Below, piece after piece: positions 1 through 46,140 of a stretch of 64,000 bases of DNA. This DNA comes from an uncultured Chloroflexia bacterium (GTDB taxonomy: Bacteria > Chloroflexota > Limnocylindria > Limnocylindrales > CSP1-4): contig CAVUCC010000011.1 of assembly GCA_963739885.1 (NCBI GenBank), positions 1,153,760-1,217,759 on the forward strand. Direction: 5' to 3'. Under the pieces are notes generated by a model that made no database searches, was not told the DNA's origin, and was given only the letters and a program-made list of their open reading frames with translations. The number at the start of each line of letters is the position of its first letter. Positions within the stretch are counted from its first letter, which is position 1. The translations under genes were made by a program, and so were the position numbers.

Positions 1-122
1 TCAGGAGCCCGACGAGGCCGCCGACGGTCGTACCCGGCGGGCCGGCGACACCTCCGGCCCGCCGGGATTCCGTCCCGGCCACCACGATCCCCGCGGTCGC
101 CGACACGCTCGACGATGACGTC

Positions 123-1064
123 GTGGACGACGACCTGATCGACGACGACACGTACGACGACGAGGAGATCGGCACCGACTTCGACTCGCTGTACGCCGCG
201 GTCACGCCCAGCGCGCACGCGGACATGGCCCCCGACGCGAAGCCCAGGCGCCGCGCTCGTGCGGCGGCGCCCGCCCCATCGAAGGGGGTTCGGTCCCGCC
301 GGCGCGCGGACGTGACGGCATCGGAACCCGCGTCCGGTGGGATCTGGAAGAAGATCGCGCTCGGGGGTGCGGCGGTGATCGCCGTGTTCGCGATCGGCTT
401 CGGGGCCAACGCGATCGTCAACGGCAACAACGCCGAGCCGGCCCCGACCCCCGATGTGGCACAGGCCAGCCCGAGCGCGCCGGCGGTCGACCAGGCCCAG
501 GTCGCCCAACTCATGACGAAGTACGCAGCGGACCCGAACGACACCACCACGCTGCTCGGCCTCGCCGACGCGTTCTATGCCGGCCAGGACTACTCGAGCG
601 CGGGCGAGTGGCTGGACAAGCTGCTCGCGATCGATCCCAAGAACGTCCAGGCGCTGCTGGCGAAAGGCGCGGTCAGCTTCAACCTCGGCGACCTTCCGAC
701 GGCCGAATCCACCTGGAAGCAGGTGGCGGACATCGCGCCCGACAACGTCGAGGTCCACTACGACCTGGGCTTCCTGTACCTCAACCAGACGACGCCCGAT
801 TGGGCGGGTGTCCAGAGCGAATGGACGAAGGTCATCCAGCTCGATCCGGGCTCGGATCTGGCACAGACGGTCCAGGCGCATCTCGATGCCCTGGTCGCCG
901 CCTCGATGATCCCGGCCTCACCCGGTGCCCCGGCCTCACCCGCGGCCAATGGTTCCCCCGTTGCGTCCCCGGCTGCCTCTGAGACCCCGGCCCCGCCGGC
1001 CGCATCCCCGGCCGCGTCCCAGCCGGCCGCCTCTCCGGCGCCGACCGGGAGCGCCACGCCATGA
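123..1064 (+). CDS. TPR-repeat single-pass membrane protein, probable cytochrome c maturation accessory factor (CcmH/CcmI/NrfG-like TPR module)
   Basis: Acidic N-terminus, one hydrophobic helix (IALGGAAVIAVFAIGF), TPR-like repeats (LADAFYAGQDYSSAGEWLDKLLAIDPKN...) and a Pro/Ala/Ser-rich tail. Its stop overlaps the ccdA start (ATGA at 1061). The frame is open back to nt 3, so the true start may lie upstream of the window. Confidence 0.5.
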   Translation: MDDDLIDDDTYDDEEIGTDFDSLYAAVTPSAHADMAPDAKPRRRARAAAPAPSKGVRSRRRADVTASEPASGGIWKKIALGGAAVIAVFAIGFGANAIVNGNNAEPAPTPDVAQASPSAPAVDQAQVAQLMTKYAADPNDTTTLLGLADAFYAGQDYSSAGEWLDKLLAIDPKNVQALLAKGAVSFNLGDLPTAESTWKQVADIAPDNVEVHYDLGFLYLNQTTPDWAGVQSEWTKVIQLDPGSDLAQTVQAHLDALVAASMIPASPGAPASPAANGSPVASPAASETPAPPAASPAASQPAASPAPTGSATP

Positions 1065-1843
1065 GCGATCTCGGCAGCGCGCTCGGCCTCGGCATCGCCT
1101 TCACCGGCGGCGTCGTGTCGTTCGCGTCCCCGTGCTGCCTGCCGCTGGTACCGGCCTACCTCAGCTACATGGTCGGTGCGACCGGCGATGGAGCGTCCGG
1201 CCGCAGGACCGCGTTCCTGCACGGGCTGGCGTTCACGATCGGGTTCTCGCTGGTGTTCGTGGCCTTCTGGGCCTCGATCGGCGCCATCGGCTACGTGCTG
1301 GCCGACAACAAGCGTCTGCTGACGATGGCCGGCGGCGCGCTGCTCGTGTTCCTCGGGCTCCAGGTCGCGGGCGTGATCAACGTCCGGGCCCTGTGGCGCG
1401 ACACCCGGGCCATGCCCGCCACGGGCGGAACGCTCGTGGCGGCCGGCGGACCGGGTATGGGCCTCCGGGGCGTGGGTGGCGTGCTCGGCGGCACCGGCGG
1501 CTCGCCGTCCTACAACCGGTCGTTCGTGTTCGGTCTCCTGTTCGCGGCCGGGTGGAGCCCGTGCATCGGGCCCATCCTGGGCGGGATCCTGGGGCTCGCG
1601 ACGGCAACCTCGAGCGTGCTCCAGGGAACGATGCTGCTGATCGCGTACGCCGCCGGCCTGGCCGTCCCGTTCCTGGCCGTCGCGCTCGGAGCGTCCTGGG
1701 TCTCGCGCCGCCTGACCTGGATCGGCCGCCACCACCACATCGTCTCACTCGCCACCGGCGCACTGCTCGCGACGGTCGGGGTGCTGATGCTCACCAACAC
1801 GCTCAGCCGGCTGGCGACCATCGCGTCGCCGTTCGGCCTGTAG
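1061..1843 (+). CDS. ccdA: Cytochrome c biogenesis thiol-reductant transporter CcdA (DsbD-family membrane protein)
   Basis: Polytopic membrane protein with the two conserved Cys-containing segments SPCCLPLVPAYLSYM and WSPCIGPILGGILG. Sits directly upstream of resB/ccsA. Confidence 0.85.
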   Translation: MSDLGSALGLGIAFTGGVVSFASPCCLPLVPAYLSYMVGATGDGASGRRTAFLHGLAFTIGFSLVFVAFWASIGAIGYVLADNKRLLTMAGGALLVFLGLQVAGVINVRALWRDTRAMPATGGTLVAAGGPGMGLRGVGGVLGGTGGSPSYNRSFVFGLLFAAGWSPCIGPILGGILGLATATSSVLQGTMLLIAYAAGLAVPFLAVALGASWVSRRLTWIGRHHHIVSLATGALLATVGVLMLTNTLSRLATIASPFGL

Positions 1844-1855
1844 GAGGTCGTTCGG

Positions 1856-3322
1856 ATGACCCACGAAGGCTCCCGGCCGCTGCCCCCGGCGGCGGTCCCC
1901 GCCGTGCGGGAAGCCGCGAGGACCGGCGTGGTTGATCGCATCGACCGCGTGCTCGAAGGCCTCTGGCACCTCCTGTCGTCGATGCGCGTGGCGATCGTGC
2001 TGATGCTGGCCATCGCCGCGCTCGGCGTGCTGGGCGCGGTGATCATCCAGGCGCCGTCGGGTGTCCTGAACGACCCGTCGGCGAAGGCCGACTGGCTGTC
2101 CCAGGTCCGTCCGAAGTACGGCGGCTGGACATCGATCATGGACTTCTTCCAGTTGTTCCAGATCTTCAACTCCGTGCTGTTCCGGGTCCTCGTCGCCGGG
2201 CTGACGATCAGCCTCATCGCCTGCTCGATCCACCGGACGCCGGGTATCTGGCAAACGATCACCAGGCCCCGCCTTGACGTCGGACCCGCGTTCTTCGAGC
2301 ACGCACCCCAGCACGAAGCGGTCGTGGTCCGGCATTCACCGGCCGAGACGCTCGGCATTGTGAATGGGGTCCTGCAGGGGCGGCACTACCGGACTCTGGC
2401 CCACGACGACGGCGTGATCCATGTCTACGGAGACCGCTTCCGTTGGGTCCAGTTCTCCGGCGTGGTCGCCCACCTGTCGCTGGTCGTGATCCTGGCCGGC
2501 GCCATCATCGGGGCGATGTTCGGCTACCGCGACAGCGGCTTCACGATCGCCGAGGGCAGCACGCTGCCGGTGGCGGCCGAGGCAGGGCTGTCGCTCCAGC
2601 TGATCGACTTCACAGACACCTACTACACCGACAGTGGCATGCCCCAGGACTACGCCAGCCAGGTCGTCCTGTACAAGGACGGCCAGGAGGTCGCCCGCCA
2701 CACCATCCGGGTCAACGACCCGCTGCGCTACGGCGACACGACCTTCTACCAGGCTTTCTTCGGATCGGCGGCGGTCATGACGGTCAAGGACTCGACCGGC
2801 AAGACCCTGGTGTCGGAAGGCGTGCCGCTGGCCTGGACCACCACGGCCGACAACCGGCCGATCGGCTCGTTCACCATCCCAGGCACGAACTATGTGGGCT
2901 GGGTCGTGGGGACGCTCGGCGCCAACGACGCCACCATCCAGCCCGGCCAGATGCAGCTCGAGCTGTACACCGCGGACAGCGGCCGGGAGGTGGCCCAGCA
3001 GGTGCTTGACCAGGGCACGCCAGCGACGATGGAGGGCCTGACGGTCAGCTTCGACCGCGAGAGCCAGTTCACCGGCCTGAGTGTCTCACGCGATCCCGGC
3101 GTGACCCTCGTCTGGCTGGGAGCATTCCTCCTGGTCGCCGGGTTCACCCTCCGCTTCCTGCTTCCGCACAAGCGGATCTGGGCGCGCATCTCGCCCCGGG
3201 CCAACGGTGGCGCGGTGCTGGCAGTGGCGAGCCTCGGCAGCCGCGACGCTGCGCTGGGAACCGAATTCCAAGGTCTTGTGAGCGACATCCGCGGGGCGTT
3301 GCATACGCCGGCGCGGTCCTGA
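1856..3322 (+). CDS. resB: Cytochrome c biogenesis protein ResB/Ccs1 (System II)
   Basis: 488 aa with N-terminal TM helices, a large extracytoplasmic domain and a C-terminal TM (VTLVWLGAFLLVAGFTLRFLLPHKRIW), the typical ResB layout. Placed between ccdA and ccsA. Confidence 0.8.
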   Translation: MTHEGSRPLPPAAVPAVREAARTGVVDRIDRVLEGLWHLLSSMRVAIVLMLAIAALGVLGAVIIQAPSGVLNDPSAKADWLSQVRPKYGGWTSIMDFFQLFQIFNSVLFRVLVAGLTISLIACSIHRTPGIWQTITRPRLDVGPAFFEHAPQHEAVVVRHSPAETLGIVNGVLQGRHYRTLAHDDGVIHVYGDRFRWVQFSGVVAHLSLVVILAGAIIGAMFGYRDSGFTIAEGSTLPVAAEAGLSLQLIDFTDTYYTDSGMPQDYASQVVLYKDGQEVARHTIRVNDPLRYGDTTFYQAFFGSAAVMTVKDSTGKTLVSEGVPLAWTTTADNRPIGSFTIPGTNYVGWVVGTLGANDATIQPGQMQLELYTADSGREVAQQVLDQGTPATMEGLTVSFDRESQFTGLSVSRDPGVTLVWLGAFLLVAGFTLRFLLPHKRIWARISPRANGGAVLAVASLGSRDAALGTEFQGLVSDIRGALHTPARS

Positions 3323-3334
3323 GGGAGATCCGAC

Positions 3335-4222
3335 ATGGATAAGATGGCCGGCTACGCGTTCGTGGCGGCGATGTTCAGCACCGGTCTCGCGATCTTCGTC
3401 TACCTGCTGTACGCAATCTCCGGTCTGCGGGCCGCCCGGATGCAGACCGCCGGCGCCCCGGGATCCACCGGGGCGATGGGCTTCGTGTCCGGGCCCCGAA
3501 CCGCCTCGATGGGGCGCTACGCGACGATCCTCGGCTGGCTGGCCGTGGTCGCGCTCCTCATGAGCCTCGTGTTCCGCGCCATCGCCACGGGCCATGGCCC
3601 GTTCGCGAACATGTACGAGTTCTCGGTCGCGTTCGCGTTCGGGATCCTGGCGGCCTACATGTGGTTCGAGCGCCGGTACCACCAGCGGATCCTGGCGCTG
3701 GTCGCCCTGCCCGTCGCGCTCGCCATGATGCTCTACGCATGGACGATCCAGGGGCCCATCGAGCCGCTCGTCCCGGCGCTTCAGAACAACCTGCTGCTCA
3801 CCGTCCATGTCGCCGTCGCGATCGTCGCCTACGGCAGCTTCTCGATCGCGTTCGCGGCCGCCGTCCTGTACCTGATCCAGCCCGAGGGCGGCCGCTGGGG
3901 CCTGCCCAAGCCGCAGGTGCTGGACGAGATCGGATACCGTGCCGTGGTCGTCGGCTTCCCCTTCCTGAGCCTCACGATCATCCTCGGCGCGGTGTGGGCC
4001 GACGTCGCCTGGGGCAGCTACTGGAGCTGGGACCCCAAGGAGACGGCGTCGCTGGTGACCTGGCTGATCTACGGTGCGTACCTCCACGCCCGCGTCATGC
4101 GCGGCTGGCGCGGCAACCGGGCGGCCTGGCTCCTGATGCTCGGCTTCGCGGCCACGCTCTTCACCTACTTCTTCATCAACCTGTTCGCGCCCGGCCTCCA
4201 CAGCTACGCGGGCCTGAGCTGA
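3335..4222 (+). CDS. ccsA: Cytochrome c assembly protein CcsA/ResC (haem-handling, System II)
   Basis: Polytopic membrane protein with the Trp-rich WWD-type haem-handling motif WGSYWSWDPKETASLVTWLIYGAYLH. Confidence 0.9.
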   Translation: MDKMAGYAFVAAMFSTGLAIFVYLLYAISGLRAARMQTAGAPGSTGAMGFVSGPRTASMGRYATILGWLAVVALLMSLVFRAIATGHGPFANMYEFSVAFAFGILAAYMWFERRYHQRILALVALPVALAMMLYAWTIQGPIEPLVPALQNNLLLTVHVAVAIVAYGSFSIAFAAAVLYLIQPEGGRWGLPKPQVLDEIGYRAVVVGFPFLSLTIILGAVWADVAWGSYWSWDPKETASLVTWLIYGAYLHARVMRGWRGNRAAWLLMLGFAATLFTYFFINLFAPGLHSYAGLS

Positions 4223-4251
4223 CCCGTGCGGAACGGAAGGGAGCGATCGCG

Positions 4252-4851
4252 ATGAACGCTGCGGGCGTCGCCGCGAGGCCGTCCCGCCGCGGGGCCGGCC
4301 CCCTCCAGACGATCGTCGTCATCGCCGTCACGGCCGTCCTCATCGGGGCCGTGACCTGGCTCGTGGCGGGTCCGGGCACCGACGACGGGGTGACGTCGAT
4401 CGACCTCGGCGCCAACGCTGCCGGCGCGGCGCCGGTGGTCGGGGCGATCCCCCCGGACTTCACGGCCATGACGTGGGACGGCCAGACCGTCTCACTCTCC
4501 GACTACGCCGGCAAGCCGATCTGGCTGACGTTCGGCGCCTCGTGGTGCCCTGATTGCCGGACGGAAGCTCCGGACGTCGAGGCCACCTACCAGGCATACA
4601 AGGATCAGGGGCTGGTCATCCTCGCCGTGTTCATCGATGAGAGCGGCGCGGACATCGGCACCTACGCACAGCGTGCGGGTCTCACCTTCCCGATCGCGGT
4701 CGACCAGAACGAGACGATCGCCGGGACCTATCGCACCCTCGGCATCCCGACCCACTTCTTCATCGGCACCGACGGACGCATCAAGGACGTGCGCATCGGT
4801 GCCCTGCCCAAGACCGAGATGGATCGCGCCGTCTCGGAGATCGTCAACTAG
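4252..4851 (+). CDS. resA: TlpA/ResA-family thiol-disulfide oxidoreductase (membrane-anchored thioredoxin)
   Basis: ATG at 4252 preceded by GGAAGGGAG. N-terminal anchor helix and thioredoxin fold with a WCPDC active site (TFGASWCPDCRTEAP). Confidence 0.8.
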   Translation: MNAAGVAARPSRRGAGPLQTIVVIAVTAVLIGAVTWLVAGPGTDDGVTSIDLGANAAGAAPVVGAIPPDFTAMTWDGQTVSLSDYAGKPIWLTFGASWCPDCRTEAPDVEATYQAYKDQGLVILAVFIDESGADIGTYAQRAGLTFPIAVDQNETIAGTYRTLGIPTHFFIGTDGRIKDVRIGALPKTEMDRAVSEIVN

Positions 4852-4861
4852 GCACGCACGA

Positions 4862-6589
4862 GTGACCGATCCCACCGTGCCCGGCGATTCGGTCCCCGCG
4901 GTGGCAGGGCCCGATTTCGGAGGGGCAGCCGACGACGCACCCCGAGCGGCGGTGGCCAGCACCGATTCCGAGGCCGCCGACGACACCCCGCCCGCGGCGG
5001 AAGCCGGCAGCGCCCCGCCTGCCGAGCCCGCACGACCCCGCCACCCCTTCTACCTGCGCGGTCGCCGGCCACGGCTTCCCTCCTCGCGGAGCGGCCTGTT
5101 CGCCCTGCTCCTCGTGCTCAGCGGTCTCGGTGCCGTCGCGACCTTCTCGGCCGTGTCGCTGCTCAACTGGACCGAGACGGCGGACTTCTGCGGTCGCTGC
5201 CACACCATGGCCCCCGAGCTCGCGGCCTACGAGGCCGGCCCGCACCGCGATGTCGCCTGCGCCGAGTGTCATGTCGAACCGGGCATCGCGGGCTGGATCA
5301 AGGCCAAGCTCAACGGCACGCGGCAGCTGATCGAGGTGGTCCTGGGCACCTTCCCGGAGCCGATCCCGCCACCCGACCACTCCCAGCTTCCGGGTGCGGC
5401 GGTCACGTGCCAGAAGTGCCATGCGGTCGAGTCCCACCCGGTCACCACGCTCAAGACGGCCACGATGTACGCAGAGGACGAGACCAACACCCGGCAGTTC
5501 GTGGGGCTCCTGATCCGCCCCAGCGGTGGCGACCCGTTCGACGTCACCAAGAGCGTCCACTGGCACGTCCTGCGCACCGTCAACTACTGGTCGCCGTACG
5601 TCAACGGCGCGCAGATCGATCTCGTCGAAGAGACCGAGGACGACGGCACGGTGAAGCAGTTCATCAGCCAGGCGGAGATCACCGACACGTCCAACGTCGC
5701 GCCGGACGTGGCCGCCATCCAGGCAACGCAGACGTCGACCACGATGTCGTGCTACGACTGCCACAACCGTGTCGGCCATCCGATCCCGAATCCGCGTGCC
5801 GGACTCGATCATGACCTCCTGGTCAACGCCATCGACCCCACCCTCCCGTACATCAAGCGCGAAGGGATGCGGATCCTGTGGGCCTCGTACCCGGACGATG
5901 CCGCGGCCGATGCCGCGGCCGACGAGCTGGCCTCCTTCTACGCCATGAACTACCCCGACGTCGCCCAGGCCAAGTCCCAGCAGATCGGCCAGGCGATCAG
6001 CGCGATCAAGGTGCTGTACCGGTTGACGGCCACACCCGAGATGAAGGTCACCGCGAAGACCTACCCCGACAACCTCGGCCACCTCGACTTCCCCGGCTGC
6101 TTCCGGTGCCACGACGGCGGCCACTTCCTGGTCGAGAACGGCGTCGTGACCAACAAGACCATCCCGTCCACCTGCGACACCTGCCACACCTTCCCCCAGA
6201 TCGGGCCCGCGGTCGCCAGCCTGCCACTGGGTGCGCCACCATCGACGCACGACGACGAGCTGTGGGTGTTCAACCACAAGAATGTCGCGACGAGCATCGA
6301 CCCGGGGGGCACCTCGTGCGGCGAGTGCCACGCTCGTGACTACTGCGTCAACTGCCACTCCACCGGGGCCGTGACCGTCGACCACGACGAGATGGCCACC
6401 AACCACGCCAAGGTCATCCGCGCGCAGGGCAACACTGCCTGTGCCTACTGCCACCAGCCGGTGTTCTGCGCCCGCTGCCACAACGAGCCGGTGCTGCCGG
6501 TGACGACGCCCTTCTCGGAGGGGCCAACCACCCAGAACCTGCCCGACCAGCCGTCCGGCGTCAGCTGGCCGCTGACGCCGAGAGGCTGA
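4862..6589 (+). CDS. Membrane-anchored decahaem c-type cytochrome with NapC/NirT/NrfH-like N-terminal module
   Basis: GTG at 4862, in frame with ORF 4637..6589. One TM helix (LFALLLVLSGLGAVATFSAVSLL), then CGRCHTM and CAECH. In total 10 CxxCH: CGRCH, CAECH, CQKCH, CYDCH, CFRCH, CDTCH, CGECH, CVNCH, CAYCH, CARCH. Confidence 0.85.
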   Translation: MTDPTVPGDSVPAVAGPDFGGAADDAPRAAVASTDSEAADDTPPAAEAGSAPPAEPARPRHPFYLRGRRPRLPSSRSGLFALLLVLSGLGAVATFSAVSLLNWTETADFCGRCHTMAPELAAYEAGPHRDVACAECHVEPGIAGWIKAKLNGTRQLIEVVLGTFPEPIPPPDHSQLPGAAVTCQKCHAVESHPVTTLKTATMYAEDETNTRQFVGLLIRPSGGDPFDVTKSVHWHVLRTVNYWSPYVNGAQIDLVEETEDDGTVKQFISQAEITDTSNVAPDVAAIQATQTSTTMSCYDCHNRVGHPIPNPRAGLDHDLLVNAIDPTLPYIKREGMRILWASYPDDAAADAAADELASFYAMNYPDVAQAKSQQIGQAISAIKVLYRLTATPEMKVTAKTYPDNLGHLDFPGCFRCHDGGHFLVENGVVTNKTIPSTCDTCHTFPQIGPAVASLPLGAPPSTHDDELWVFNHKNVATSIDPGGTSCGECHARDYCVNCHSTGAVTVDHDEMATNHAKVIRAQGNTACAYCHQPVFCARCHNEPVLPVTTPFSEGPTTQNLPDQPSGVSWPLTPRG

Positions 6590-6752
6590 CCTACCGGAGG
6601 AGCTGCCGTTTCTCCGCGGGTCCTGACTGACCTTGGCGCCACCATCGGAGGCACGAGACCCGGCACCGATACGCCGATCGGGCCGGCGGGCTGATCACCC
6701 GCTGATCATCCGGGCAAACGCCCCGTACCCGCCGAACGATCGCTCCGCGCGC

Positions 6753-6786
6753 AAATGTGCCGTTTCTATATCCATCCGCACATTCC
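6753..6786 (+). promoter_or_regulatory. AT-richer patch in the only sizeable gap of the array; candidate internal promoter for the Rieske/cyt b genes
   Basis: gcaaatgtgccgtttctatatccatccgcacattcc lies inside the 278-nt gap 6590..6867. It stands out against the 70% GC background, but no confident -35/-10 assignment is possible. Confidence 0.25.
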
Positions 6787-6867
6787 GTCGCCACGGTCGT
6801 CGCTCGCACAATGTCGGTCCATCAGGAGGGCTGCGATGGGCCATTGGGCCTGTCGCCGGAGGCTGCG

Positions 6868-7404
6868 ATGGACCACGACCCCGCGACCGCGCCCGAGCCA
6901 GGGCAGTTGCCGGCGCCGGACGCCGTCACGCCGCTCGGGTCTCCGTCCGGCTCAGCGACTCCCGGTCCCCAAGGGATCCAGTCCCGGCGACGGTTCCTCG
7001 CCTGGCTCGGCGGGTTCACCGTGTTCTCGACGGTCGCGATGATCACGACGCCGATCCTCGGGTTCCTCGTCCCGCCCAGGACGAGCGGCACGTCCGGTGG
7101 CGGGAAGGTCCTGGTCGCCACGACGGCCGACATCCCTCCCGGCGCCGGCAAGGTCGTCGCCCTGGGCAGCAAGCCGGCGATCGTCGTCAGCACCGAGCAG
7201 GGCCTCCACGCATTCTCGGCGATCTGCACCCACCTCGGGTGCGTCGTGGCCTGGAACGACCTGGCCGGCGTCATCCAGTGCCCGTGCCACGATGGCCGCT
7301 TCAACCCCGTCTCAGGCACGGTCGTGTCCGGCCCGCCCCCGGCACCGCTGCCCGCGCTCAAGGTCTCCGTGGAAGGCGACCAGATCTTTCTGAGCGAGGC
7401 CTGA
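6868..7404 (+). CDS. Rieske [2Fe-2S] subunit of a cytochrome bc/b6f-type complex
   Basis: ATG at 6868 with GGAGG 5 nt upstream. Twin-arginine signal SRRRFLAWLGG and cluster-binding boxes CTHLGC and CPCHDG. Confidence 0.85.
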   Translation: MDHDPATAPEPGQLPAPDAVTPLGSPSGSATPGPQGIQSRRRFLAWLGGFTVFSTVAMITTPILGFLVPPRTSGTSGGGKVLVATTADIPPGAGKVVALGSKPAIVVSTEQGLHAFSAICTHLGCVVAWNDLAGVIQCPCHDGRFNPVSGTVVSGPPPAPLPALKVSVEGDQIFLSEA

Positions 7405-7405
7405 G

Positions 7406-8482
7406 ATGGCGGCCGGCGGCACCACCGATCGCGCCGTGGGATCCGGCAGCTGGATCGAGCAACGGACCGGCGTCGGACCGGTGATGGCTGCGCTGCTTCA
7501 CGTCCGGATCCCGATGTCGGCCCGGACGATGTACTTCGGCGGGATCGCCCTGTTCCTGTTCGGCATCCAGGTCGTCACGGGCACGTTGCTCGCGCTGTAC
7601 TACAAGCCCACCCCCGAGGCCGCCTACGAGAGCGTCCAGTTCGTGACCAGCGACGTCAGCTTCGGGTGGCTGATCCGGAGCATGCACCACTGGGCTGCGA
7701 ACCTGATGATCCTGTTCGTTGCCCTGCATCTCCTGCGGGTCTTCTTCCAGGCGGCGTACAAGTACCCGCGGGAGCTGACCTGGGTCATCGGCGGCGGCCT
7801 GCTCCTGGTGACCCTCGGCTTCGGGTTCACCGGATACCTCCTGCCTTGGGACCAGCGGGCGTACTGGGCCACCGTCGTGGGTACCGACATCGCCGGATCC
7901 GTTCCCGTGGTCGGCGACTCGCTCCTCCAGCTGCTGCGCGGCGGTGCGGACGTCACTGGTGACACCATGAGCCGGTTCTTCGGGATCCACGTGCTGGTGC
8001 TGCCGCTCGCCCTGGCCGGTCTCATGGCGATCCACCTGGTGCTGGTCCACCAGCTCGGCCTGGCCAACCCCAAGAAGCCCGAGCCGCGAGTCCGCCCGGC
8101 TGCGGTCGACCGGGAGCCGCTCCGGCCGTTCTTCCCGAACTACCTCCTTGACGAGGTGGTCGCTTGGTACGTCATCCTCGCGATCCTCGTGGTCCTCGCC
8201 TCGGTCTTCCCGGCCGGTTTGGAGGGGCAGGCGAACCCGCTCGAGACACCCGCGCACATCAAGCCCGAGTGGTACTACCTCGCGGTCTACCAGCTGCTCA
8301 AGATCATCCCGCGCACGATCGCCGTGATGGCCCCGATCATCGGCATCGGCCTGCTCATCGCGTGGCCCTTCCTGGACCGCAACCCCGAGGTGCTGGCACG
8401 ACGGCGCAAGCTGGCCGTCGCGGGGGCCACGCTGGTGGTGGTGGGGGTGATCGTCCTGACGGTGTGGGGTTATGTCAGCTGA
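7406..8482 (+). CDS. Cytochrome b (fused b6 + subunit IV type)
   Basis: 358 aa polytopic protein starting 1 nt after the Rieske stop. Carries the His-containing helices of cytochrome b and the Qo-site PEWY motif (HIKPEWYYLAVYQLLK). Confidence 0.9.
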   Translation: MAAGGTTDRAVGSGSWIEQRTGVGPVMAALLHVRIPMSARTMYFGGIALFLFGIQVVTGTLLALYYKPTPEAAYESVQFVTSDVSFGWLIRSMHHWAANLMILFVALHLLRVFFQAAYKYPRELTWVIGGGLLLVTLGFGFTGYLLPWDQRAYWATVVGTDIAGSVPVVGDSLLQLLRGGADVTGDTMSRFFGIHVLVLPLALAGLMAIHLVLVHQLGLANPKKPEPRVRPAAVDREPLRPFFPNYLLDEVVAWYVILAILVVLASVFPAGLEGQANPLETPAHIKPEWYYLAVYQLLKIIPRTIAVMAPIIGIGLLIAWPFLDRNPEVLARRRKLAVAGATLVVVGVIVLTVWGYVS

Positions 8483-10034
8483 GATCCGCCGGCCGATGTT
8501 CGGTCGCCGCTCCCCGGCTGCGCGGGGCGTGAGGGCCGCCCTGACCCTCGGCGTGCTCGGCCTCGCGTGGTTCGCGCTCGCGTTCACGGCGGCCGCCCAG
8601 GACCCGAGTGGCTCGCCAGCCGCATCCAGCAGCACCGAGGCCACGCCTTCGCCGAAGGCGACCCCAGCACCGTCCGATTTCGACTGGCTGTTCGCGACGC
8701 CGCTCCCGACCGCGACCGTCCCGCTCGCATCGGCGCCACCGGTCCCTGCACCGCTCACGCACGCCCCGGCCGATGGCGCCAACGGATGCTACGACTGCCA
8801 CAGCGTCGTGAACGACAAGCAGGCGGCGATCGCCGCCGATTGGCAGGACAGCGCCCATGGCCAGGCCGGCGTCACGTGCGCCGACTGCCACGGGGGAGAC
8901 CCGCGTTCCGACCAGATCACGGTGGCCATGGACCCGTCGAACGGGTTCGTCGGCGCACCCGACCGCCTGGGGAGCGTCGGGCTGTGTGGCAGCTGTCACG
9001 CGGACGTGAACCGGATGAAGGCCTCCGGTCTGCCGACCGACCAGTACGCGAAATACTGGTCGAGCGTGCACGGACAGCAGCTGTTGACCGCAGATGACAA
9101 CCGGGTGGCGATCTGCACGGATTGCCATGGATCTCACACCGTCAAGAAGGTCTCGGACCCGAGCTCCCCGGTGTTCATCCTCAACGTCCCGGAGCTGTGC
9201 GCCGGCTGCCATGCCGACGCCGATCGGATGGCACCGTACGGCATCCCGACGGACCAGTACGCCATCTACTCCAAGAGCGTCCACGGCGTCGCGCTGCTCG
9301 ACAACAAGGACGTCCGGGCACCGAGCTGCGCGTCCTGCCATGGTTCGCATGACGCGAAGCCACCCACGTCCGCAACGGTGGTCGGCGTGTGCGGCAAGTG
9401 CCACACGGCAACCGAGGATCTCTACCAGCAGAGCCGACACTCCGAGCTCCAGGCGGCAGCGCCCCAGTGCTGGACCTGCCACGGCACCCATGACGTCACG
9501 CAGCCGGGCTCCTACATGTTCTTCCACCCGACTCCGCCCGAGTACACGTGCGACACGTGTCACGACCTGCAGACACACACGCTCCGCCTCGAGCTCAGCC
9601 GGTTCACGAACGAGGCCGATCGGCGATGTGACACGTGCCATCACCCCGATTCGCAGATCTACGCGCAGATCGACGGGATCAGCAACGCCATCACATCGGC
9701 AGAGGACGCCTACACCCAAGCCCAGGACACGATCCAGCGCGCGGCGGGGCTGGGCATGATCACGTCCGACGCGGAGGTGAAGCTGACCGACGCGAAGACG
9801 AGCCTCATCCAGGCACAGGCCGCCGTTCACACGACGAAGCTGAGCAAGATCGCGGAGCTGTCGACCGATGCCACGACGAAGGCCCAGGCGGCCGAGGCGA
9901 TCGCGACCGGCAAGATCGACGAAAGCGTGTTCCGGCGTGAGGCGATGGTCGTCGTCCTCGCGTTCATCGCGTTCAACGCGCTGTTCCTGTACGTCCTGAA
10001 GCGCCGGCTGGACAGGGACCTCGAGAAGGGCTGA
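8472..10034 (+). CDS. Decahaem c-type cytochrome with C-terminal membrane anchor, occupying the cytochrome c subunit position of the bc complex
   Basis: Start overlaps the cyt b end by 11 nt. Has a signal/anchor helix and 10 CxxCH (CYDCH, CADCH, CGSCH, CTDCH, CAGCH, CASCH, CGKCH, CWTCH, CDTCH, CDTCH), then an alpha-helical Ala/Gln-rich segment and a C-terminal TM (MVVVLAFIAFNALFLYVL). Confidence 0.85.
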   Translation: MSAEIRRPMFGRRSPAARGVRAALTLGVLGLAWFALAFTAAAQDPSGSPAASSSTEATPSPKATPAPSDFDWLFATPLPTATVPLASAPPVPAPLTHAPADGANGCYDCHSVVNDKQAAIAADWQDSAHGQAGVTCADCHGGDPRSDQITVAMDPSNGFVGAPDRLGSVGLCGSCHADVNRMKASGLPTDQYAKYWSSVHGQQLLTADDNRVAICTDCHGSHTVKKVSDPSSPVFILNVPELCAGCHADADRMAPYGIPTDQYAIYSKSVHGVALLDNKDVRAPSCASCHGSHDAKPPTSATVVGVCGKCHTATEDLYQQSRHSELQAAAPQCWTCHGTHDVTQPGSYMFFHPTPPEYTCDTCHDLQTHTLRLELSRFTNEADRRCDTCHHPDSQIYAQIDGISNAITSAEDAYTQAQDTIQRAAGLGMITSDAEVKLTDAKTSLIQAQAAVHTTKLSKIAELSTDATTKAQAAEAIATGKIDESVFRREAMVVVLAFIAFNALFLYVLKRRLDRDLEKG

Positions 10035-10045
10035 CGCGGGGGCGC

Positions 10046-10900
10046 TCAGCCGAGCTCGACCGTCACTCGGTCCGGGCGGGCGTAGACGTTGAACCCGTCG
10101 CCTCGCAGGAACCCGATCAGGGTGAGGCCGAGCCGCATGGCGGCCTCGACCGCGAGATCGCTGGGTGCGGAGACGGCGGCCAGGATCGGAACGCCGGCCA
10201 CGGCCGCCTTCTGGACGAGCTCGAAGCTCGCCCGACCCGAGACGAGCACGATCCGCTCGTGAAGCGGCAGCGCGGCGGCCAGCACCTGGCTCCCGATCAG
10301 CTTGTCCAGGGCGTTGTGACGGCCAACATCCTCGCGCAGCGCCAGCAGCGTGCCGCGCGGGTCGAACAGCCCGGCCGCATGGAGCCCGCCGGTGGCCGCG
10401 AACACCGCCTGGGCATCGCGCAGGGAGCCCGGCAGGCCGAGCAGGACGTCCGGCGCCACGAAGGGTCCGTCCGGGATCGGGTCGCAGCGCACCTCGACCT
10501 CGTCGATCGATGCCTTGCCGCAGATCCCGCACGAGGCCGTCGCCACGAAATGGCGCTCCGCGACGCGGGTTGCGTCGAACGGGCGGTCGAGGTGGACGGT
10601 CACCTGGTCGTCGGGCTGCGCGGCATTGCCGGGCTGGCTGAACGTGATGTCCGAGATCCCCGTGGCGTCGTCGAGCAGACCCTCGGTGCGCAGGAAGCCC
10701 ACCGCGAGCTCCGCCTCGTGACCCGGCGTGCGCATCGTGACGGCGACGTCCACCGGTGCCTGGCCAGGCCCACGGGCGCGGATGGCCATCGGCTCCTCGC
10801 CCGCCAGCCGATCGTCGCGCCCCTCCACGACGCCCGCGCGATATGCAGTCACCCGGGTGAGAGCGGCCTGGCGGGGCGTCGGGTCGGGCGGGGCAGTCAT
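10046..10900 (-). CDS. fdhD: FdhD-family sulfurtransferase (formate dehydrogenase / molybdoenzyme accessory protein)
   Basis: 284 aa with the conserved catalytic loop ATASCGICGKASIDEV and the C-terminal GRHNALDK motif. Confidence 0.85.
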   Translation of the reverse strand: MTAPPDPTPRQAALTRVTAYRAGVVEGRDDRLAGEEPMAIRARGPGQAPVDVAVTMRTPGHEAELAVGFLRTEGLLDDATGISDITFSQPGNAAQPDDQVTVHLDRPFDATRVAERHFVATASCGICGKASIDEVEVRCDPIPDGPFVAPDVLLGLPGSLRDAQAVFAATGGLHAAGLFDPRGTLLALREDVGRHNALDKLIGSQVLAAALPLHERIVLVSGRASFELVQKAAVAGVPILAAVSAPSDLAVEAAMRLGLTLIGFLRGDGFNVYARPDRVTVELG

Positions 10901-10943
10901 GGCGGGATCGTACCCGGCTCACGTCGCGGACCATACTCAGGCC

Positions 10944-11438
10944 ATGACCCGCGATCCTCGACCACCGACGGCCGCCGAACGTGCGTTCGTGGCCCGCGCG
11001 CGACGGGCGACGCTGGCCACCAGCGGCTCGACCGGCCGGCCCCGGCCGGTCCCGGTGTGCTTCGTCCTGCTCGACGACGTCCGCCGGCCCGGATGGCCGA
11101 TCCTCTATTCCCCGATCGACGAGAAGCCCAAGCGGGCGACCGACCCGCTACAGCTGGCGAGGGTCCGGGACCTGCTCGCCCGACCGGCCGTCGCCCTCCT
11201 CGCGGACCACTGGGACGAGGACTGGGGACGGCTCGGCTGGGTTCGCCTCGACGGTCGGGCCGGCATCCTGGCTGCCGACGCGGGCGAGGAGCACGCGCGT
11301 GCCGTGACCGCCCTGCGCGCCAAGTATCCGCAGTACCGTCAGCACGCCCTTGGCGTCCGGCCGATCATCAGGATCGAGGTCGATGGGTCGGCGTCGTGGG
11401 GCCGCCTCGAACCACCGGCCCTCAGCGAACCTCGCTGA
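10944..11438 (+). CDS. PPOX-class (pyridoxamine 5'-phosphate oxidase-like) probable F420-dependent oxidoreductase
   Basis: ATG at 10944. Segments ATLATSGSTGRPRPVPVCFVL, YSPIDEKPKR and LLADHWDEDWGRLGWVRLDG resemble the split-barrel PPOX/F420 family. Confidence 0.7.
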   Translation: MTRDPRPPTAAERAFVARARRATLATSGSTGRPRPVPVCFVLLDDVRRPGWPILYSPIDEKPKRATDPLQLARVRDLLARPAVALLADHWDEDWGRLGWVRLDGRAGILAADAGEEHARAVTALRAKYPQYRQHALGVRPIIRIEVDGSASWGRLEPPALSEPR

Positions 11439-15065: not shown

Positions 15066-16418
15066 TCAGGCGCGGAGGCTGATCGTTCCAGCCTGCTTGT
15101 CGACCACGATCGGCAGCTCGAGCAACGGGCGCCGGGTGGGCCCGCCGAGCACTGCGCCGTGGTTCGCCGGATCGAACGCCGCGCCATGGCAGGGACACAG
15201 GAGCACGCCATCCCGCGCGTCCCAGCCAACCGGGCAGCCCTGGTGCGTGCACGTGGCGTCATACGCCACGTAGCTGCCGTTGGACAACCGAACGATGATG
15301 GCGGGGTCGCCTGCGGGATACGGCGCGGGGGCATCGAGCGGGATCTGGATGCCGGCGGCGCCGCGCTGGTTGACCGCCTTGATCGTGGCCAGGGTCAGGG
15401 TGGGACCCGGGTTCGAGGTAGCCGCCGAGGTCGTTCCGGCGCCGCCCGCCGTCGGGCTCGGCTGGCCCAGTCCGGGTCCCGCGCTGCTGCCGGCCCCCAG
15501 CCCGCCGTCTCCCGTCCCGGAGCCTGCGCCCGAGGCATCGCCGGACCCTCCGCCGTTGCCGCCGAACCCGCCGGTGCCGGCGCCCAGCGCCGTGCTGTCA
15601 CTCGACCCCGGCAGGATGAAGCGCAGTGGAACCGCCAGGGATGCGATCGCCACCGCGAACGCACCCAGCGCGCCGGCCTGGAGAACCTGGCGCCGGAGCG
15701 GCGACGCGTCGACCACGGGGGTCGGACGGCCGCGCACGCGATAGCCGGCACCGGACCGGAGGGATCCCGGCCAGTCGTCGGTGACGAAGGCACCGAGCTC
15801 GCGGACCGACCGGTGCACCAGCAGCCCGCCGTCGCCAGCCAGGGTGAGGGCGATCCAGCCAAGGGCGTACGGCAGATCCGGTCCGTAGTAGTAGGGCGTG
15901 GTGGTCCATGAGGCCGTGAGCCAGAACAGAAGCGACAGCGCGGCACCGGCGGCCGCCGACGCCCGGAACGCGAGGCCGGTCACCGCTCCCAGCCCGATGG
16001 CGATCTCACCCAGTGCGATCAGCAGCCCGATCGGCAGCGCGAAAGGCTGCACGATCTGGACGAGCGGTGCGACCGGCGAGACGTGGACGAACGCGGCCAG
16101 CTGGCCATAGATGGAGGCCGGGCTCGAGGCGTCGAAGAAGGTTGGGGACAGCAGCTTGTCGAGCCCGGCATAGATGAACGTCAGCCCGAAGAAGAAGCGG
16201 AGAGGAAGGAGCGCGCGAGCAGGTACGCTCGCGCGCTCCAGCTGCTCCCGGAGCGAGGGGCCGGGAGCTTCCTCGGACGGACGGGCCCCGGTCCACGGCG
16301 CCGATTCCGCGTTGCCGATGGGCCGGTATTGCGCGCGACGGGAGCCCCGCTGTCGACGGCTCACAGCTGTCTCATCCAGGGTCTCGTCACGCGGCGTGGT
16401 CCTCCGTCTAGGGGGCAC
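15066..16418 (-). CDS. Fusion protein: DoxX/DoxD-like membrane domain + Gly-rich linker + Rieske [2Fe-2S] domain
   Basis: N-terminal DoxX-like helices (LRFFFGLTFIYAGLDKL...), a roughly 80-aa Gly/Ser/Ala linker, and a C-terminal Rieske domain with CTHQGCPVGW and CPCHGAAFD. Confidence 0.75.
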   Translation of the reverse strand: MPPRRRTTPRDETLDETAVSRRQRGSRRAQYRPIGNAESAPWTGARPSEEAPGPSLREQLERASVPARALLPLRFFFGLTFIYAGLDKLLSPTFFDASSPASIYGQLAAFVHVSPVAPLVQIVQPFALPIGLLIALGEIAIGLGAVTGLAFRASAAAGAALSLLFWLTASWTTTPYYYGPDLPYALGWIALTLAGDGGLLVHRSVRELGAFVTDDWPGSLRSGAGYRVRGRPTPVVDASPLRRQVLQAGALGAFAVAIASLAVPLRFILPGSSDSTALGAGTGGFGGNGGGSGDASGAGSGTGDGGLGAGSSAGPGLGQPSPTAGGAGTTSAATSNPGPTLTLATIKAVNQRGAAGIQIPLDAPAPYPAGDPAIIVRLSNGSYVAYDATCTHQGCPVGWDARDGVLLCPCHGAAFDPANHGAVLGGPTRRPLLELPIVVDKQAGTISLRA

Positions 16419-34419: not shown

Positions 34420-34648
34420 CGTGGGCATCCTCGGTGATGTCCGCGGTCCACGGCAGCATCCGCCCAGGGGACCCCTCGAGCTCGCGCTCGAGCCCGGCGA
34501 GGCGATCGGTCCGTCGGGCAACGGCCAGGACGCATCCCCCGCTGCGAGCCAGGCGCCGGACCGCATGCGCGCCGAGACCGCTCGACGCCCAGGTGATGAC
34601 GGCCCGGATGCCTTGGAGCGACTCCGGACCGAGAACCTCAACGCTCAC
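34420..34648 (-). pseudogene. N-terminal remnant of an SDR, truncated at the end of ADH copy A
   Basis: MSVEVLGPESLQGIRAVITWASSGLGAHAVRRLARSGGCVLAVARRTDRLAGLERELE...ADITED follows the TGxxxGxG Rossmann start (G>W). The reading then runs into the antisense of the ADH 3' end. Its start overlaps the PPDK-like stop. Confidence 0.45.
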
Positions 34649-36832
34649 GCGCGGCCCGCCGCCACCTCGTCGGCGCGGCTCCGTCCGGCCAGCCGAATCA
34701 GGTCCTCGTGGAGCTCGAACCAGGCCGCGTGGTAGCTGTCCACGCGAGGCGACGCGACGAACCGGCCGTCGCCGTCCTGTGCCGCCGCGTTTGCCCGGTC
34801 GAGACGCACCCGGTAGCGGGCGAGGCGCGGAAGCCCGTCGACCAGCCCACCGAGCCAGATGTCGGCATCGGCATGCAACGCGGCGAGGTCCGCCAGGACA
34901 CCCGCGTCGTAGGCCGGGTCCGAATGGTCGTTGAACGTCTGCTCGCCATCGGCGTCCCGCATCTGCCAGGCGGTGACCACGGACTTCATCCGCTGGTCCA
35001 GGGCGATGAATCGGTCGAGGGCCTCCGCGGCGCGGTCGGGTCCCCAGGACGCGGCATCCGCAGCGATCAGCCCGGCTGCCACGATCTTGCCGTCCTCGGT
35101 CAGGCGATGGGATCCTGCGGCGAGCTCGGCAGCGCCGTCCGCCACCAGCCGCTCGAGGATGGTGCCGGCGTCATCGAGCGGCTGGCCGGTGGCCTGCGCC
35201 AGGGCGTCGACCGTCGCGTAGCCCTTGATCGCGAGCGCGCGGACGGCAGCCTCGACCGGCGATCCCGTCGGCTCGTCCGCCGCACCCGAGCCGGCCTGGG
35301 TCCCCGTATCGGCGACGGCGACCGGTCCCTCGGGAGTGGCGCCGCTCGACCCGGCAGGACCGCCCGCCGCGATCTCGATGCCCGCCTCGCGAGCCCAGCC
35401 CAGCAGGACCGCCACCTCGGGCGCGACCTCGGCATGTCCCACGACCGAGCCCGCGAACACGTCGCCCGTCGCCCCGTCCACCGTGATCCAGTCACCTGCC
35501 GCGAGCCTGGTGCCCGCGACGTCCACCGCGCCGTCGCTCACGACCACGTCCACGGCACCCACCACCGCGGGGATCCCCCACCCTCGCGCAACGACTGCGG
35601 CATGGCTGGCGAGGCCACCGCTCGAAGTCAGGATCCCGGCGGCCCGGGCCATGCCGTGGACGTCGTCGGGCGACGTCTCCGCGCGCACGAGGATCGCCGC
35701 TTGCCCGGCATCCGCCGCCTCGATGGCGGCCTCGGGCGAGGTGACGATCCGGCCCGCCGCAACGCCCGGTGACACTGGCAGGCCGGTGGTGAGCGGCGTG
35801 GCGCCGGGGTCTCGCCCGGTGGCCTGCATCGGCGGATCGGTCAGGATCGCCGCCACCCGGCGGACGGCCTGCTCCCTGGACAGCGGGAACGCCGGGTCCT
35901 CAGCCATATCGAGGGCGATCCGCAGCGCCGCCTGCGGGCTTCGCTTGCCGACCCGGCACTGGAGCATCCACAGCCGACCGTGCTCGATCGTGAACTCGAT
36001 GTCGCACAGGTCGGCGTGGTGCCGCTCGAGGCGGGCCGCATTGTCGCGAAGCTGCGTGGCCACCTCGGGCAGCCGCTCATCGAGCTTCGACAGCGGTTCC
36101 GTGCGGTGGGTACCGGCAACCACGTCCTCGCCCTGGGCGTTGAACATGACGTCGCCGTAGAGCACGGCTGCGCCGGTCGCGGGGTTGCGTGTGAACAGCA
36201 CGCCGGTGCCGGAGTCGGCGCTCCGATTGCCGAACACCATCACCTGGACCGTGACCGCCGTGCCAAGGTCGTCGGGGATGCCCTCGCGGCGTCGATACGT
36301 GCGGGCGCGTTCGCTGTTCCAGGAGCGGAACACGGCTTCGATCGCCGCGCGCAGCTGCTGCCATGGGTCGAACGGGACAGTGTGGGCGCCAACGATGTCG
36401 CGGTACATGGCCTCGAACCGCTTGCGGCAGTTGGCGGCGAACTCCCGGCTCGCCGGAGCGTTCCGCCAGGCCGCCGGTCGTGACGTCGTTCAGGCCCAGA
36501 TTGAGGATCGTGTCCATCATTCCGGGCATCGAGACGGGCGCGCCCGAACGGACGCTGACCAGCAACGGGTCGGACGGGTCGCCGAACCGATGGCCCACCA
36601 GGAGCTCCATGCGCCGCATGTGCACCACGATCTCCTCGTCCAGCCCGGCGGGCCACCCGTGGGCGAGGTACTCGTTGCATGCCTCGGTCGAGATGGTGAA
36701 CGCGGGCGGGACCGGCAAGCCCAGCTCGGCGGCCATGACCGACAGGTTCGCTGCCTTGCCGCCCAGACGACGCTCGACCTCGGCGAAGGTCAGGCCGTCG
36801 AGGCGGTCGTCGCAGTCGAAGACGTAGGGCAC
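34645..36832 (-). pseudogene. PPDK-like protein with one frameshift near 36445: ATP-grasp nucleotide-binding domain + phosphohistidine swivel domain, no PEP/pyruvate TIM barrel, unknown C-terminal domain
   Basis: GTG at 36832 with GAGGAG upstream. GGKAANLSVMAAELGLPVPPAFT, SVRSGAPVSMPGMMDTILNLGLND. Removing one G near 36445 restores SGEPEFAANCRKRFEAMYRDIV. Swivel GGLASHAAVVARGWGIPAVVG. The last roughly 250 aa are unrelated to the PPDK C-terminus. Confidence 0.75.
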
Positions 36833-46137: not shown

Positions 46138-46140
46138 TGC

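Follow-up and report, generated by a model that had tools for sequence, protein, structure and literature searches.

The locus described here raises the question of which protein takes electrons from a Rieske/cytochrome b pair when the gene behind cytochrome b encodes a cytochrome with ten haem motifs. It lies at the start of a 64-kb stretch of DNA (64,000 nucleotides, G+C content about 70%) from contig CAVUCC010000011.1 of an uncultured Chloroflexia bacterium of the Limnocylindria, order Limnocylindrales; we call this whole stretch the window. Three plus-strand genes make up what we refer to as the triad. They encode a Rieske [2Fe-2S] subunit (6868-7404), a cytochrome b in which b6 is fused to SUIV (7406-8482), and multihaem cytochrome 2 (MHC2), a tail-anchored decahaem cytochrome c (8472-10034). 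We propose, with moderate confidence, that MHC2 serves as the c subunit of a menaquinol-oxidising Rieske/cytochrome b complex that would feed a haem network.

A first-pass annotation of this DNA had described nine co-directional plus-strand genes in which a decahaem cytochrome sits where bc complexes carry cytochrome c1, cytochrome f or a dihaem subunit. We found all nine genes, with their motifs, at the coordinates claimed, and Pfam and NCBIfam models back each assignment. We also found exactly 10 CxxCH motifs apiece in MHC2 and in a second decahaem of the array, MHC1 (4862-6589); by chance, a protein of this length would be expected to contain about 0.001 of them. No other gene in the whole window bears CxxCH, and a CxxCH scan of its 64 kb revealed no cytochrome c gene of the mono- or dihaem kind. 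What follows cytochrome b is thus a gene with ten haem sites rather than the one or two of a canonical c subunit. The Rieske and cytochrome b genes are 1 nt apart, and the cytochrome b stop overlaps the MHC2 start by 11 nt. MHC2, a protein of about 52 kDa before its haems are counted, has a signal peptide and a C-terminal transmembrane (TM) helix, as do cytochromes c1 and f. The overlap, this topology, and the gene order described below all support the placement of a decahaem in the c-subunit position.

We scanned one genome per species for MHC2 relatives, examined the best 80 of 394 loci (cited by number, beginning with L001), and mapped the nine window proteins onto them. An MHC2 relative is encoded in 394 species genomes, and an exhaustive profile search yielded 669 MHC2-family clusters (50% identity) at E<=1e-30, mostly of about 420 residues. 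The closest MHC2 and MHC1 relatives are encoded in metagenome-assembled genomes of Chloroflexota that carry the labels Candidatus Limnocylindrales/Limnocylindria or "uncultured Chloroflexia." The MHC2 of L001 is 98% identical to that of the window; an exact-sequence look-up of the window MHC2 returned no record. The contiguous order Rieske-cytochrome b-MHC2 was found in 60 of the 63 complete loci, and in all 63 the genes are co-directional. Triad loci come from at least eight phyla, and their hosts include Chloroflexota (Limnocylindria, Anaerolineae, Caldilineae, and Ardenticatenales), KSB1, Acidobacteriota (Bryobacterales and Terriglobia), Armatimonadota, Omnitrophota, Zixibacteria, and Melioribacteraceae, among others. 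Across the 63 complete loci, cytochrome b identity and MHC2 identity to the window proteins are correlated with an r of 0.96. Gene content, motifs, topology, synteny, and distribution of the triad are established by these data.

These observations bear on the possibility that the three genes are accidental neighbours. MHC2 would then be an independent cytochrome, and the Rieske/cytochrome b pair would have its partner encoded elsewhere, like cytochrome c-556 of green sulfur bacteria. Rieske/cytochrome b operons that lack a c subunit gene and use a separately encoded monohaem partner are known (PMC10172866). We nevertheless consider chance proximity very improbable, given a gene order that recurs in at least eight phyla, the covarying divergence of the two proteins, the overlap of the cytochrome b stop with the MHC2 start, and a c1/f-like tail anchor that is kept in 77 of the 80 relatives.

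We then compared the MHC2 sequences themselves. All ten CxxCH motifs are invariant in 42 homologues, and so are 11 further His residues. Because 11 invariant His outside the motifs suffice for ten haems, we infer that all ten are probably bis-His ligated. A conserved FRR motif stands ahead of the C-terminal TM helix, and basic residues come after it. In the AF2 model (pLDDT 80), a signal helix leads into a disordered Pro/Ser linker (residues 40-81) and a haem domain at about 95-390; a helical hairpin (395-454) follows, and then a 63-residue helix runs into the membrane anchor. Nine of the ten haem sites are kept across phyla. Site 9 (CDTCH, C360; residues 360-364; window 9549-9563) was absent from all seven relatives compared outside Limnocylindria, namely, those of six other-phylum loci and one Anaerolineales locus. 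Site 9 therefore appears to be a Limnocylindria-type insertion, and the cross-phylum core appears to be a nonahaem. Anaerolineae-type versions of MHC2 carry 12 to 24 haems. Local profile similarity was found to the haem 3-5 region of NrfA (E 1e-5) and, over 114 residues, to MtrA (6r2q_A; E 0.009). Membership in the MtrA/DmsE family is not indicated, since TIGR03508 scored 48.6 bits against a cut-off of 192 and the DmsE and GSU2203 matches were all under their cut-offs.

The Rieske subunit has a Tat signal (SRRRF), one TM helix (residues 50-68), and the cluster-binding boxes CTHLGC and CPCHDGRF, which are kept in relatives. It matches Pfam Rieske at 54 bits and TM_PetC weakly; the NCBIfam PetC-like model gave an E of 1e-22, under its cut-off. 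In bc1 and b6f complexes, a Ser and a Tyr of box II raise the potential of the Rieske cluster. Gly and Phe occupy these positions in the box II of the window protein. We therefore predict that its Rieske centre belongs to the low-potential, menaquinol-type class, with a potential of about +150 mV or lower.

Cytochrome b is a single open reading frame (ORF) of 358 residues with seven TM helices, made up of a four-helix b6-type haem domain and a three-helix SUIV-like domain. It matches Pfam Cytochrome_B (180 bits), Cytochrom_B_N_2 (157 bits), and Cytochrom_B_C (58 bits). We aligned 64 sequences (the window protein and 63 orthologues) with spinach b6 and Bacillus subtilis QcrB as references. The four His ligands of the b haems (bL and bH) are invariant in all 64, and the Qo motif PEWY is present in the window protein and in most orthologues. 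The spacing of the two helix D His residues is 14 in b6-type proteins and 13 in bc1-type proteins. We found a spacing of 14 residues, H-VLVLPLALAGLMAI-H. In contrast to this b6-like character, two other features of b6f complexes are missing: b6 and SUIV are not separate polypeptides, and Cys35, the residue of the CxGG motif described as the haem ci site (Kao & Hunte 2014), is absent in 64 of 64 sequences. Its place is mostly taken by Tyr, and the window protein reads YFGG. The best NCBIfam match of cytochrome b was Geobacter ExtP at 238 bits (E 1e-70; cut-off 290), followed by the cytochrome b6 model at 234 bits; ExtQ reached 24 bits against a cut-off of 150. QcrB scored 140 bits (cut-off 500) and QcrA scored 45 bits (cut-off 275), so that the b6, PetC, QcrA, and QcrB models were all under cut-off.

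To which proteins the electrons might pass was addressed through the genes around the triad. Further cytochromes with at least four haems are encoded within 10 kb in 54 of the 80 loci, three or more of them in 18 loci, and they carry up to 28 haems. When the six-frame ORFs of the 80 loci were searched with short motifs, a crude test compared with profiles, the sequence within 10 kb of each triad gave no match to haem-copper oxidase subunit I, CuA, or bd oxidase. The suggestion in the first-pass annotation that the genes serve multihaem electron transfer is plausible on these counts. We favour a menaquinol-to-haem-wire complex because oxidase signatures are missing nearby and multihaem cytochromes are frequent.

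The same counts bear on a second possibility, that the triad is a housekeeping complex III and perhaps the only one in these bacteria. By this account, the tethered decahaem would replace a soluble or dihaem cytochrome c and feed aa3/caa3-type oxidases directly, with no extracellular role, and the neighbouring maturation operon would be the genome's general System II machinery lying beside its main client. The dihaem QcrC of actinobacterial bcc-aa3 supercomplexes offers an analogy. A PEWY Qo site and an intact Q-cycle core would suit an energy-conserving enzyme of the main chain, relatives are abundant in soil lineages (Limnocylindria and the acidobacterial Bryobacterales and Terriglobia), and the window belongs to a lineage reported to be monoderm, nearly all of whose genomes have a cytochrome c oxidase, an enzyme that needs a quinol:cytochrome c oxidoreductase. 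At L081 and other loci, the triad stands alone among unrelated housekeeping genes. However, the absence of an oxidase motif from all 80 neighbourhoods is unlike the linkage seen for qcr-cta or ACIII-caa3, two-thirds of the loci have additional multihaem cytochromes, some with 20 to 28 haems, and ten conserved haems far exceed what a hand-off to an adjacent oxidase would need. We regard a purely housekeeping role as rather unlikely.

One set of neighbours recurs. At L029 (11510-19847), the triad is followed by genes for a GAF histidine kinase, a LuxR-type response regulator, tetratricopeptide repeat (TPR) proteins, an NHL beta-propeller, and two hexahaem cytochromes that weakly match MtrC/MtrF domain II/IV (22.5 and 35.8 bits; Pfam cut-off 30). 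L025 has a large gene directly 3' of MHC2, as does L029. The TPR-NHL-two-cytochrome module also occurs 3 to 7 kb 3' of the triad in L021, L025, L027, L031, L034, L035, and L048. Homologues of the NHL propeller and the cytochromes lie 5' of maturation genes in L082 and L083, and at L040 only a cytochrome is seen, at the edge of the locus. Altogether, 11 loci have the TPR/NHL-propeller/two-hexahaem module beside the triad or beside the maturation genes.

The pathway that we propose is as follows; physical assembly, Q cycle, haem ligation, direction of electron flow, and acceptor are inferred from the genes. The triad would act as a menaquinol:multihaem-cytochrome oxidoreductase in which MHC2 replaces cytochrome c1 or f. 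Menaquinol would be oxidised at the PEWY Qo site. One electron would pass from the low-potential Rieske cluster to the membrane-proximal haem of MHC2 and then outward over its ten, probably bis-His, haems. The other would be carried across the membrane by haems bL and bH and reach a Qi site without haem ci, so that a Q cycle would operate and energy would be conserved. The next partners would likely be NHL-propeller proteins and MtrC-domain-like hexahaem cytochromes of the kind seen in relatives. The final acceptor or donor could be extracellular or in the cell wall (Fe(III) or humics), or it could be the terminal oxidases of a monoderm cell that is unable to hold a soluble cytochrome c. Given that MHC2 is the c subunit, we divide our expectation roughly evenly between an extracellular or cell-wall acceptor and a general hub that also serves oxidases.

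Electrons could also run through the same proteins in reverse. The wire would then take them up from Fe(II), reduced humics, or a partner cell, and Rieske/cytochrome b would pass them to an oxidase or, in reverse, to menaquinone and NAD+, as in acidophilic iron oxidisers. In Zixibacteria RBG-1, a PetAB-multihaem cluster was judged likelier to serve Fe(II) oxidation (PMC3903129), and the Zixibacteria loci L077 and L078 carry the triad. Ardenticatena, a Chloroflexota isolate, performs both cathodic and anodic electron transfer, and in four loci (L013, L015, L054, and L083) a TPR protein is fused to a cupredoxin domain, a type of domain typical of high-potential carriers. The sequence does not dictate which way electrons flow. 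In the window we saw neither carbon-fixation genes nor an iron oxidase of the Cyc2 or MtoAB type, and MHC1 bears the signature of NrfH, which in its characterised role is a quinol dehydrogenase. We consider electron uptake quite improbable, and outward flow from menaquinol remains our preferred direction.

Several points weigh against a menaquinol-oxidising complex that feeds a haem network. The co-transcription, assembly, and activity of the triad are extrapolated from its genes, and bis-His ligation and a low Rieske potential are predictions that follow general rules. A Foldseek search of the MHC2 model against the PDB gave nothing at E<=0.001; the best matches were HDH/HAO and MccA (E 0.03-0.14; TM score 0.16-0.19), and we do not claim a structural family for MHC2. 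A Q cycle requires an acceptor more positive than the Rieske centre, which is a poor fit with low-potential Fe(III) oxides. Some triad loci, such as L081, have no multihaem neighbours. Limnocylindria are described as monoderm and mostly aerobic, and nearly all of their genomes are said to encode a cytochrome c terminal oxidase (bioRxiv 10.1101/2021.08.23.457424). Because the lineage is mostly aerobic with oxidases and some loci lack multihaem neighbours, the triad may be a housekeeping complex III. A joint reading is possible, although we hold it tentatively and do not expect it: the triad would be a distinct, widespread bc-type class and the sole complex III of monoderm Chloroflexota such as Limnocylindria, with the haem wire replacing soluble cytochrome c as a universal distributor to terminal oxidases and cell-surface cytochromes.

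The first-pass annotation had also held that one array couples cytochrome c maturation to the bc module. Spacing between neighbouring genes is -11 to +29 nt throughout the array, with the sole exception of a 278-nt gap (6590-6867) between MHC1 and the Rieske gene. Within this gap, we found an AT-rich element, ATGTGCCGTTTCTATATCCATCCGCACAT, at about 6749-6777, within the interval 6745-6790, with a 6-bp inverted repeat (ATGTGC/GCACAT). L001 and L002 share the element, and L082 has it in part. The ATG at 6868 is preceded, at a distance of 6 nt, by a GGAGG ribosome-binding site. A sigma-70 consensus scan of positions 1-11000 detected no promoter, terminator-like sites in the same interval were at chance level with one weak hairpin (6747-6760), and Rfam gave no match at E<=1. 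Since the sigma-70 scan and Rfam were empty, it is the conserved AT-rich element that suggests a separate promoter; it could serve the triad as promoter or operator.

Comparison across loci also separates the two sets of genes. Maturation genes and MHC1 adjoin the triad in about 20 of 42 Limnocylindria-like loci. L082 has the same arrangement as the window, with an NHL propeller and two small multihaem cytochromes further 5'. At L081, the triad is a stand-alone three-gene operon, and at L083 the maturation-MHC1 block is followed directly by a convergent fdhD, without the triad. We distinguish two units because of the element in the gap, the L083 block without a triad, and the occurrence of the triad without maturation genes in most loci. 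The triad probably has its own promoter, and read-through from the maturation operon would be possible. We conclude that the triad is an autonomous, widely inherited unit and that its link to the maturation genes is a juxtaposition confined to one Limnocylindria lineage.

MHC1 had been described as a second decahaem partner flanking the bc module. We found instead that it is better described as a quinol dehydrogenase of its own. MHC1 has 575 residues, ten haems, and one N-terminal TM helix. Across 36 homologues, neither the ten CxxCH motifs nor M116 of CGRCHTM varies. Pfam Cytochrom_NNT matches at 46 bits (cut-off 24); the NCBIfam models NrfH (48 of 134 bits; E 9e-13), TorC (33 of 478), and NapC (25 of 311) are all under cut-off. 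A profile of the 36 homologues matches the Desulfovibrio vulgaris NrfH structure 2j7a_C (E 1.9e-9), in an alignment that takes in the TM helix and roughly haem motifs 1 to 3, with FCxxCHxMxP aligned. The match to 2j7a_C and the invariant Met of CGRCHTM indicate that MHC1 is an NrfH/NapC-type menaquinol dehydrogenase to which six haems have been added. With the tetrahaem quinol dehydrogenases NrfH, NapC, and CymA, it shares FCxxCHxMxP at haem 1 and a single TM helix at the N-terminus; unlike them, it has an insert of about 110 residues ahead of haem 4, six extra C-terminal haems, and a 75-residue cytoplasmic tail. This N-terminal extension of about 75 residues (4862-5090) is Asp/Pro/Ala-rich, disordered in the AF2 model, and unusual for an NrfH/NapC-type protein. 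The model as a whole is of low confidence (pLDDT 56). Protein P0121 in JGI data is 100% identical to MHC1, has the same start, and is labelled a NapC/NirT-like cytochrome at its source. Several loci of Anaerolineae, Omnitrophota, and Zixibacteria have a gene for an MHC1-like protein (30-35% identity) close to the triad.

MHC1 may thus be a second, independent entry point for electrons from quinol, presumably a non-electrogenic one. It would offer a parallel route for menaquinol oxidation, useful where the potential of the acceptor is too low to sustain a Q cycle, and the cell would have two quinol-oxidising entry points into its extracytoplasmic haem network. We propose the parallel route by analogy with Geobacter, which alternates between the inner-membrane cytochromes ImcH and CbcL according to acceptor potential (PMC5877670).

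The genes 5' of MHC1 complete a System II cytochrome c maturation operon (1-6589) in which MHC1, a client, is the last gene. Profile searches matched all of the families sought across the array (ResB, Cytochrom_C_asm, DsbD_TM, Cytochrom_NNT, Rieske, and Cytochrome_B/Cytochrom_B_C). CcdA, the thiol-reductant transporter (1061-1843, plus strand), has six predicted TM helices and conserved PC motifs and matches Pfam DsbD_TM at 46.9 bits (cut-off 27.1). ResB/CcsB, the haem-handling subunit of the synthase (1856-3322, plus strand), matches Pfam ResB over its full length at 249 bits (E 9e-74). The other synthase subunit, CcsA/ResC (3335-4222, plus strand), contains the WWD motif WGSYWSWDPKET and matches TIGR03144 (CcsB) at 232 bits (cut-off 187.6) and Pfam Cytochrom_C_asm at 157 bits. 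A TlpA/ResA-type thioredoxin-like protein with a WCPDC motif (4252-4851, plus strand) is anchored by one TM helix (residues 21-39). It matches AhpC-TSA (89 bits) and Redoxin (72 bits) above their cut-offs and the NCBIfam ResA subfamily under its cut-off (106 of 170 bits), and it would reduce apocytochrome cysteines. Both parts of System II are therefore present, the synthase as ResB/CcsB and CcsA with its WWD motif and the reductant pathway as CcdA and a CxxC thioredoxin-like protein. As in the Bacillus ResABC-CcdA and CcsBA systems, CcdA, ResB, CcsA (WWD), and a membrane-anchored CxxC thioredoxin-like protein are all encoded here, next to one another. In contrast to those systems, the operon described here includes a TPR protein, translationally coupled to ccdA, and is closed by its client cytochrome.

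The TPR gene ends at 1064 on the plus strand, with a 4-nt overlap between its stop and the ccdA start, and its 5' end is cut by the edge of the window. The protein is membrane anchored, with one TM helix (residues 73-91). TPR Pfam families match, and TPR_CcmH_CycH scores 31 bits, under the cut-off of 42; it is possibly a CcmI/CycH-like apocytochrome chaperone. A TPR gene precedes ccdA in about 20 related loci. In L001 and L002, the orthologue begins about 270 nt 5' of the position equivalent to the window start (N-terminus in L001, 1324-1714, MNARVLPATQHAALENELL), so the GTG at 123 is not the true start. In every close relative, the gene of another multihaem cytochrome ends just 5' of the TPR gene, and the window start therefore cuts a larger island. 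The cupredoxin (type 1 copper) fusions mentioned above are C-terminal to the TPR protein at L013 (690-2210), L015 (312-2144), L054 (258-2150), and L083 (4740-6224); an example of the sequence is ...SYPFSCSVHPTMTGTLTVGG, and Pfam Cupredoxin_1 was recorded for the L083 protein.

The remainder of the window encodes housekeeping metabolism (MetH, a decarboxylase, dehydrogenases, transketolase, and others). Among these genes we found no oxidase or reductase that could name the acceptor, and we identified no porin gene in the window. An FdhD/NarQ-family gene (10046-10900, minus strand) is convergent with MHC2 and syntenic in all close relatives, and at L083 a molybdopterin oxidoreductase lies about 9 kb beyond fdhD. 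We considered a molybdoenzyme acceptor reached through FdhD and dropped it, because L083 has no triad and yet retains FdhD in position. A 450-residue ORF (15066-16418, minus strand) ends in a Rieske domain (CTHQGC/CPCHGAAF), which a Gly/Ser-rich linker connects to a hydrophobic N-terminal half that appears to be a membrane domain; no cytochrome b adjoins the ORF. A Rieske-like match occurs at the equivalent place on the minus strand, 6 to 10 kb 3' of the triad, in L001-L004, L006, L007, L039, and L054. Two further minus-strand ORFs of about 610 residues (34645-36489 and 44308-46140) each have a PEP-utilizers mobile domain. The first also carries a PPDK_N domain. In the second, only the C-terminal domain was recognised, and its low second-codon-position G+C is consistent with a membrane protein.

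We compared the triad with known complexes. The canonical bc1, b6f, Bacillus bc, and actinobacterial bcc complexes resemble it in having a Tat-exported Rieske protein, a four-His cytochrome b with PEWY, and a tail-anchored c subunit beside cytochrome b. The triad differs from them in that its c subunit has ten haems rather than one or two and its cytochrome b is b6-like yet fused and without haem ci.

Multihaem partners of Rieske/cytochrome b have been described before. In the anammox bacterium Kuenenia stuttgartiensis, a membrane-anchored hexa- or octahaem cytochrome replaces cytochrome f in the complexes Kustd1480-1485 and Kuste4569-4574, and in AlphaFold models the TM helix of the multihaem protein takes the same position in both, with the long helices of one subunit wrapping the complex (PMC12954380). 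The triad shares with these complexes a b6-like cytochrome b with SUIV, a Rieske protein, and, in MHC2, long helices ahead of the anchor. In the anammox complexes, b6 and SUIV are split and cytochrome b carries membrane c-type haems, which we take to be haem ci as in b6-type complexes; an NAD(P) oxidoreductase subunit is also present, and one of the two complexes includes an HAO-like octahaem. In the triad, by contrast, cytochrome b is fused and lacks the haem-ci Cys, neither of these additional subunits is encoded, and the cytochrome belongs to a different 9-10-haem family, a distinction drawn from published descriptions rather than from sequence comparison.

In Geobacter sulfurreducens, the extKLMNOPQS cluster encodes a Rieske protein (ExtO), a cytochrome b (ExtP), a SUIV-like protein (ExtQ), and cytochromes with 10 (ExtN) and 12 (ExtM) haems (PMC5877670). 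As in the triad, a Rieske/b6-type core is encoded with a decahaem and, in this metal-respiring host, with other multihaem cytochromes. Unlike in the triad, cytochrome b is split, the decahaem gene lies 5' of the Rieske gene, and the cluster includes a porin, a rhodanese, and a selenoprotein.

Castelle et al. 2013 described PetAB among inner-membrane and periplasmic multihaem cytochromes in Zixibacteria RBG-1 and discussed iron cycling (PMC3903129). That cluster is probably of the same family, because L077 and L078 carry a Rieske-cytochrome b-nonahaem triad. The RBG-1 paper did not pick out the tail-anchored cytochrome as a c subunit. Zixibacteria are treated as having an outer membrane and MtrAB homologues, whereas the window lineage is described as monoderm and we identified no porin in the window. 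A Nap-linked Rieske/cytochrome b pair is known from Caldithrix (PMC5317091). Multihaem cytochromes were proposed as acceptors of early anaerobic bc complexes by Dibrova et al. 2013, as that proposal is cited in PMC5317091; a later paper (2017) by Dibrova et al. makes no mention of multihaem cytochromes.

Given the genomic precedents in anammox bacteria, Geobacter, Zixibacteria, and Caldithrix, the replacement of c1 or f by a multihaem protein is not new in principle. What distinguishes the triad is a fused b6-SUIV without haem ci and a distinct nona-/decahaem family that has a c1-like anchor and no solved relative. It is further set apart by its very wide distribution and its occurrence in a lineage described as monoderm. 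In the literature searched, the coverage of which was incomplete, we found no description of this triad and no named quinol oxidase for extracellular electron transfer in Chloroflexota.

Electron exchange with minerals and electrodes is known in Chloroflexota: it has been observed in Ardenticatena cultures, and many multihaem cytochromes are encoded in Anaerolineales genomes. In two studies of electron transfer in the phylum, neither a Rieske protein nor cytochrome b is mentioned, and the enzyme at the quinone pool is not named. The window offers two candidates for the exit from the quinone pool in this phylum, an energy-conserving Rieske/cytochrome b complex with a ten-haem wire and an NrfH-type decahaem dehydrogenase. 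If the triad proves to be the sole complex III, distributing electrons both to oxidases and to cell-surface cytochromes, it would supply the missing inner-membrane step of outward electron transfer in Chloroflexota. If the decahaem does act as the c subunit, the exit subunit of this conserved core can vary much more than the textbook bc1, b6f, and bcc complexes show. The triad would also give experimental access to the proposal, as relayed in PMC5317091, of multihaem acceptors for early anaerobic bc complexes. MHC2 relatives span hundreds of soil, sediment, and groundwater species, and the scoring of complex III in metabolic reconstructions of uncultured soil bacteria would be affected.

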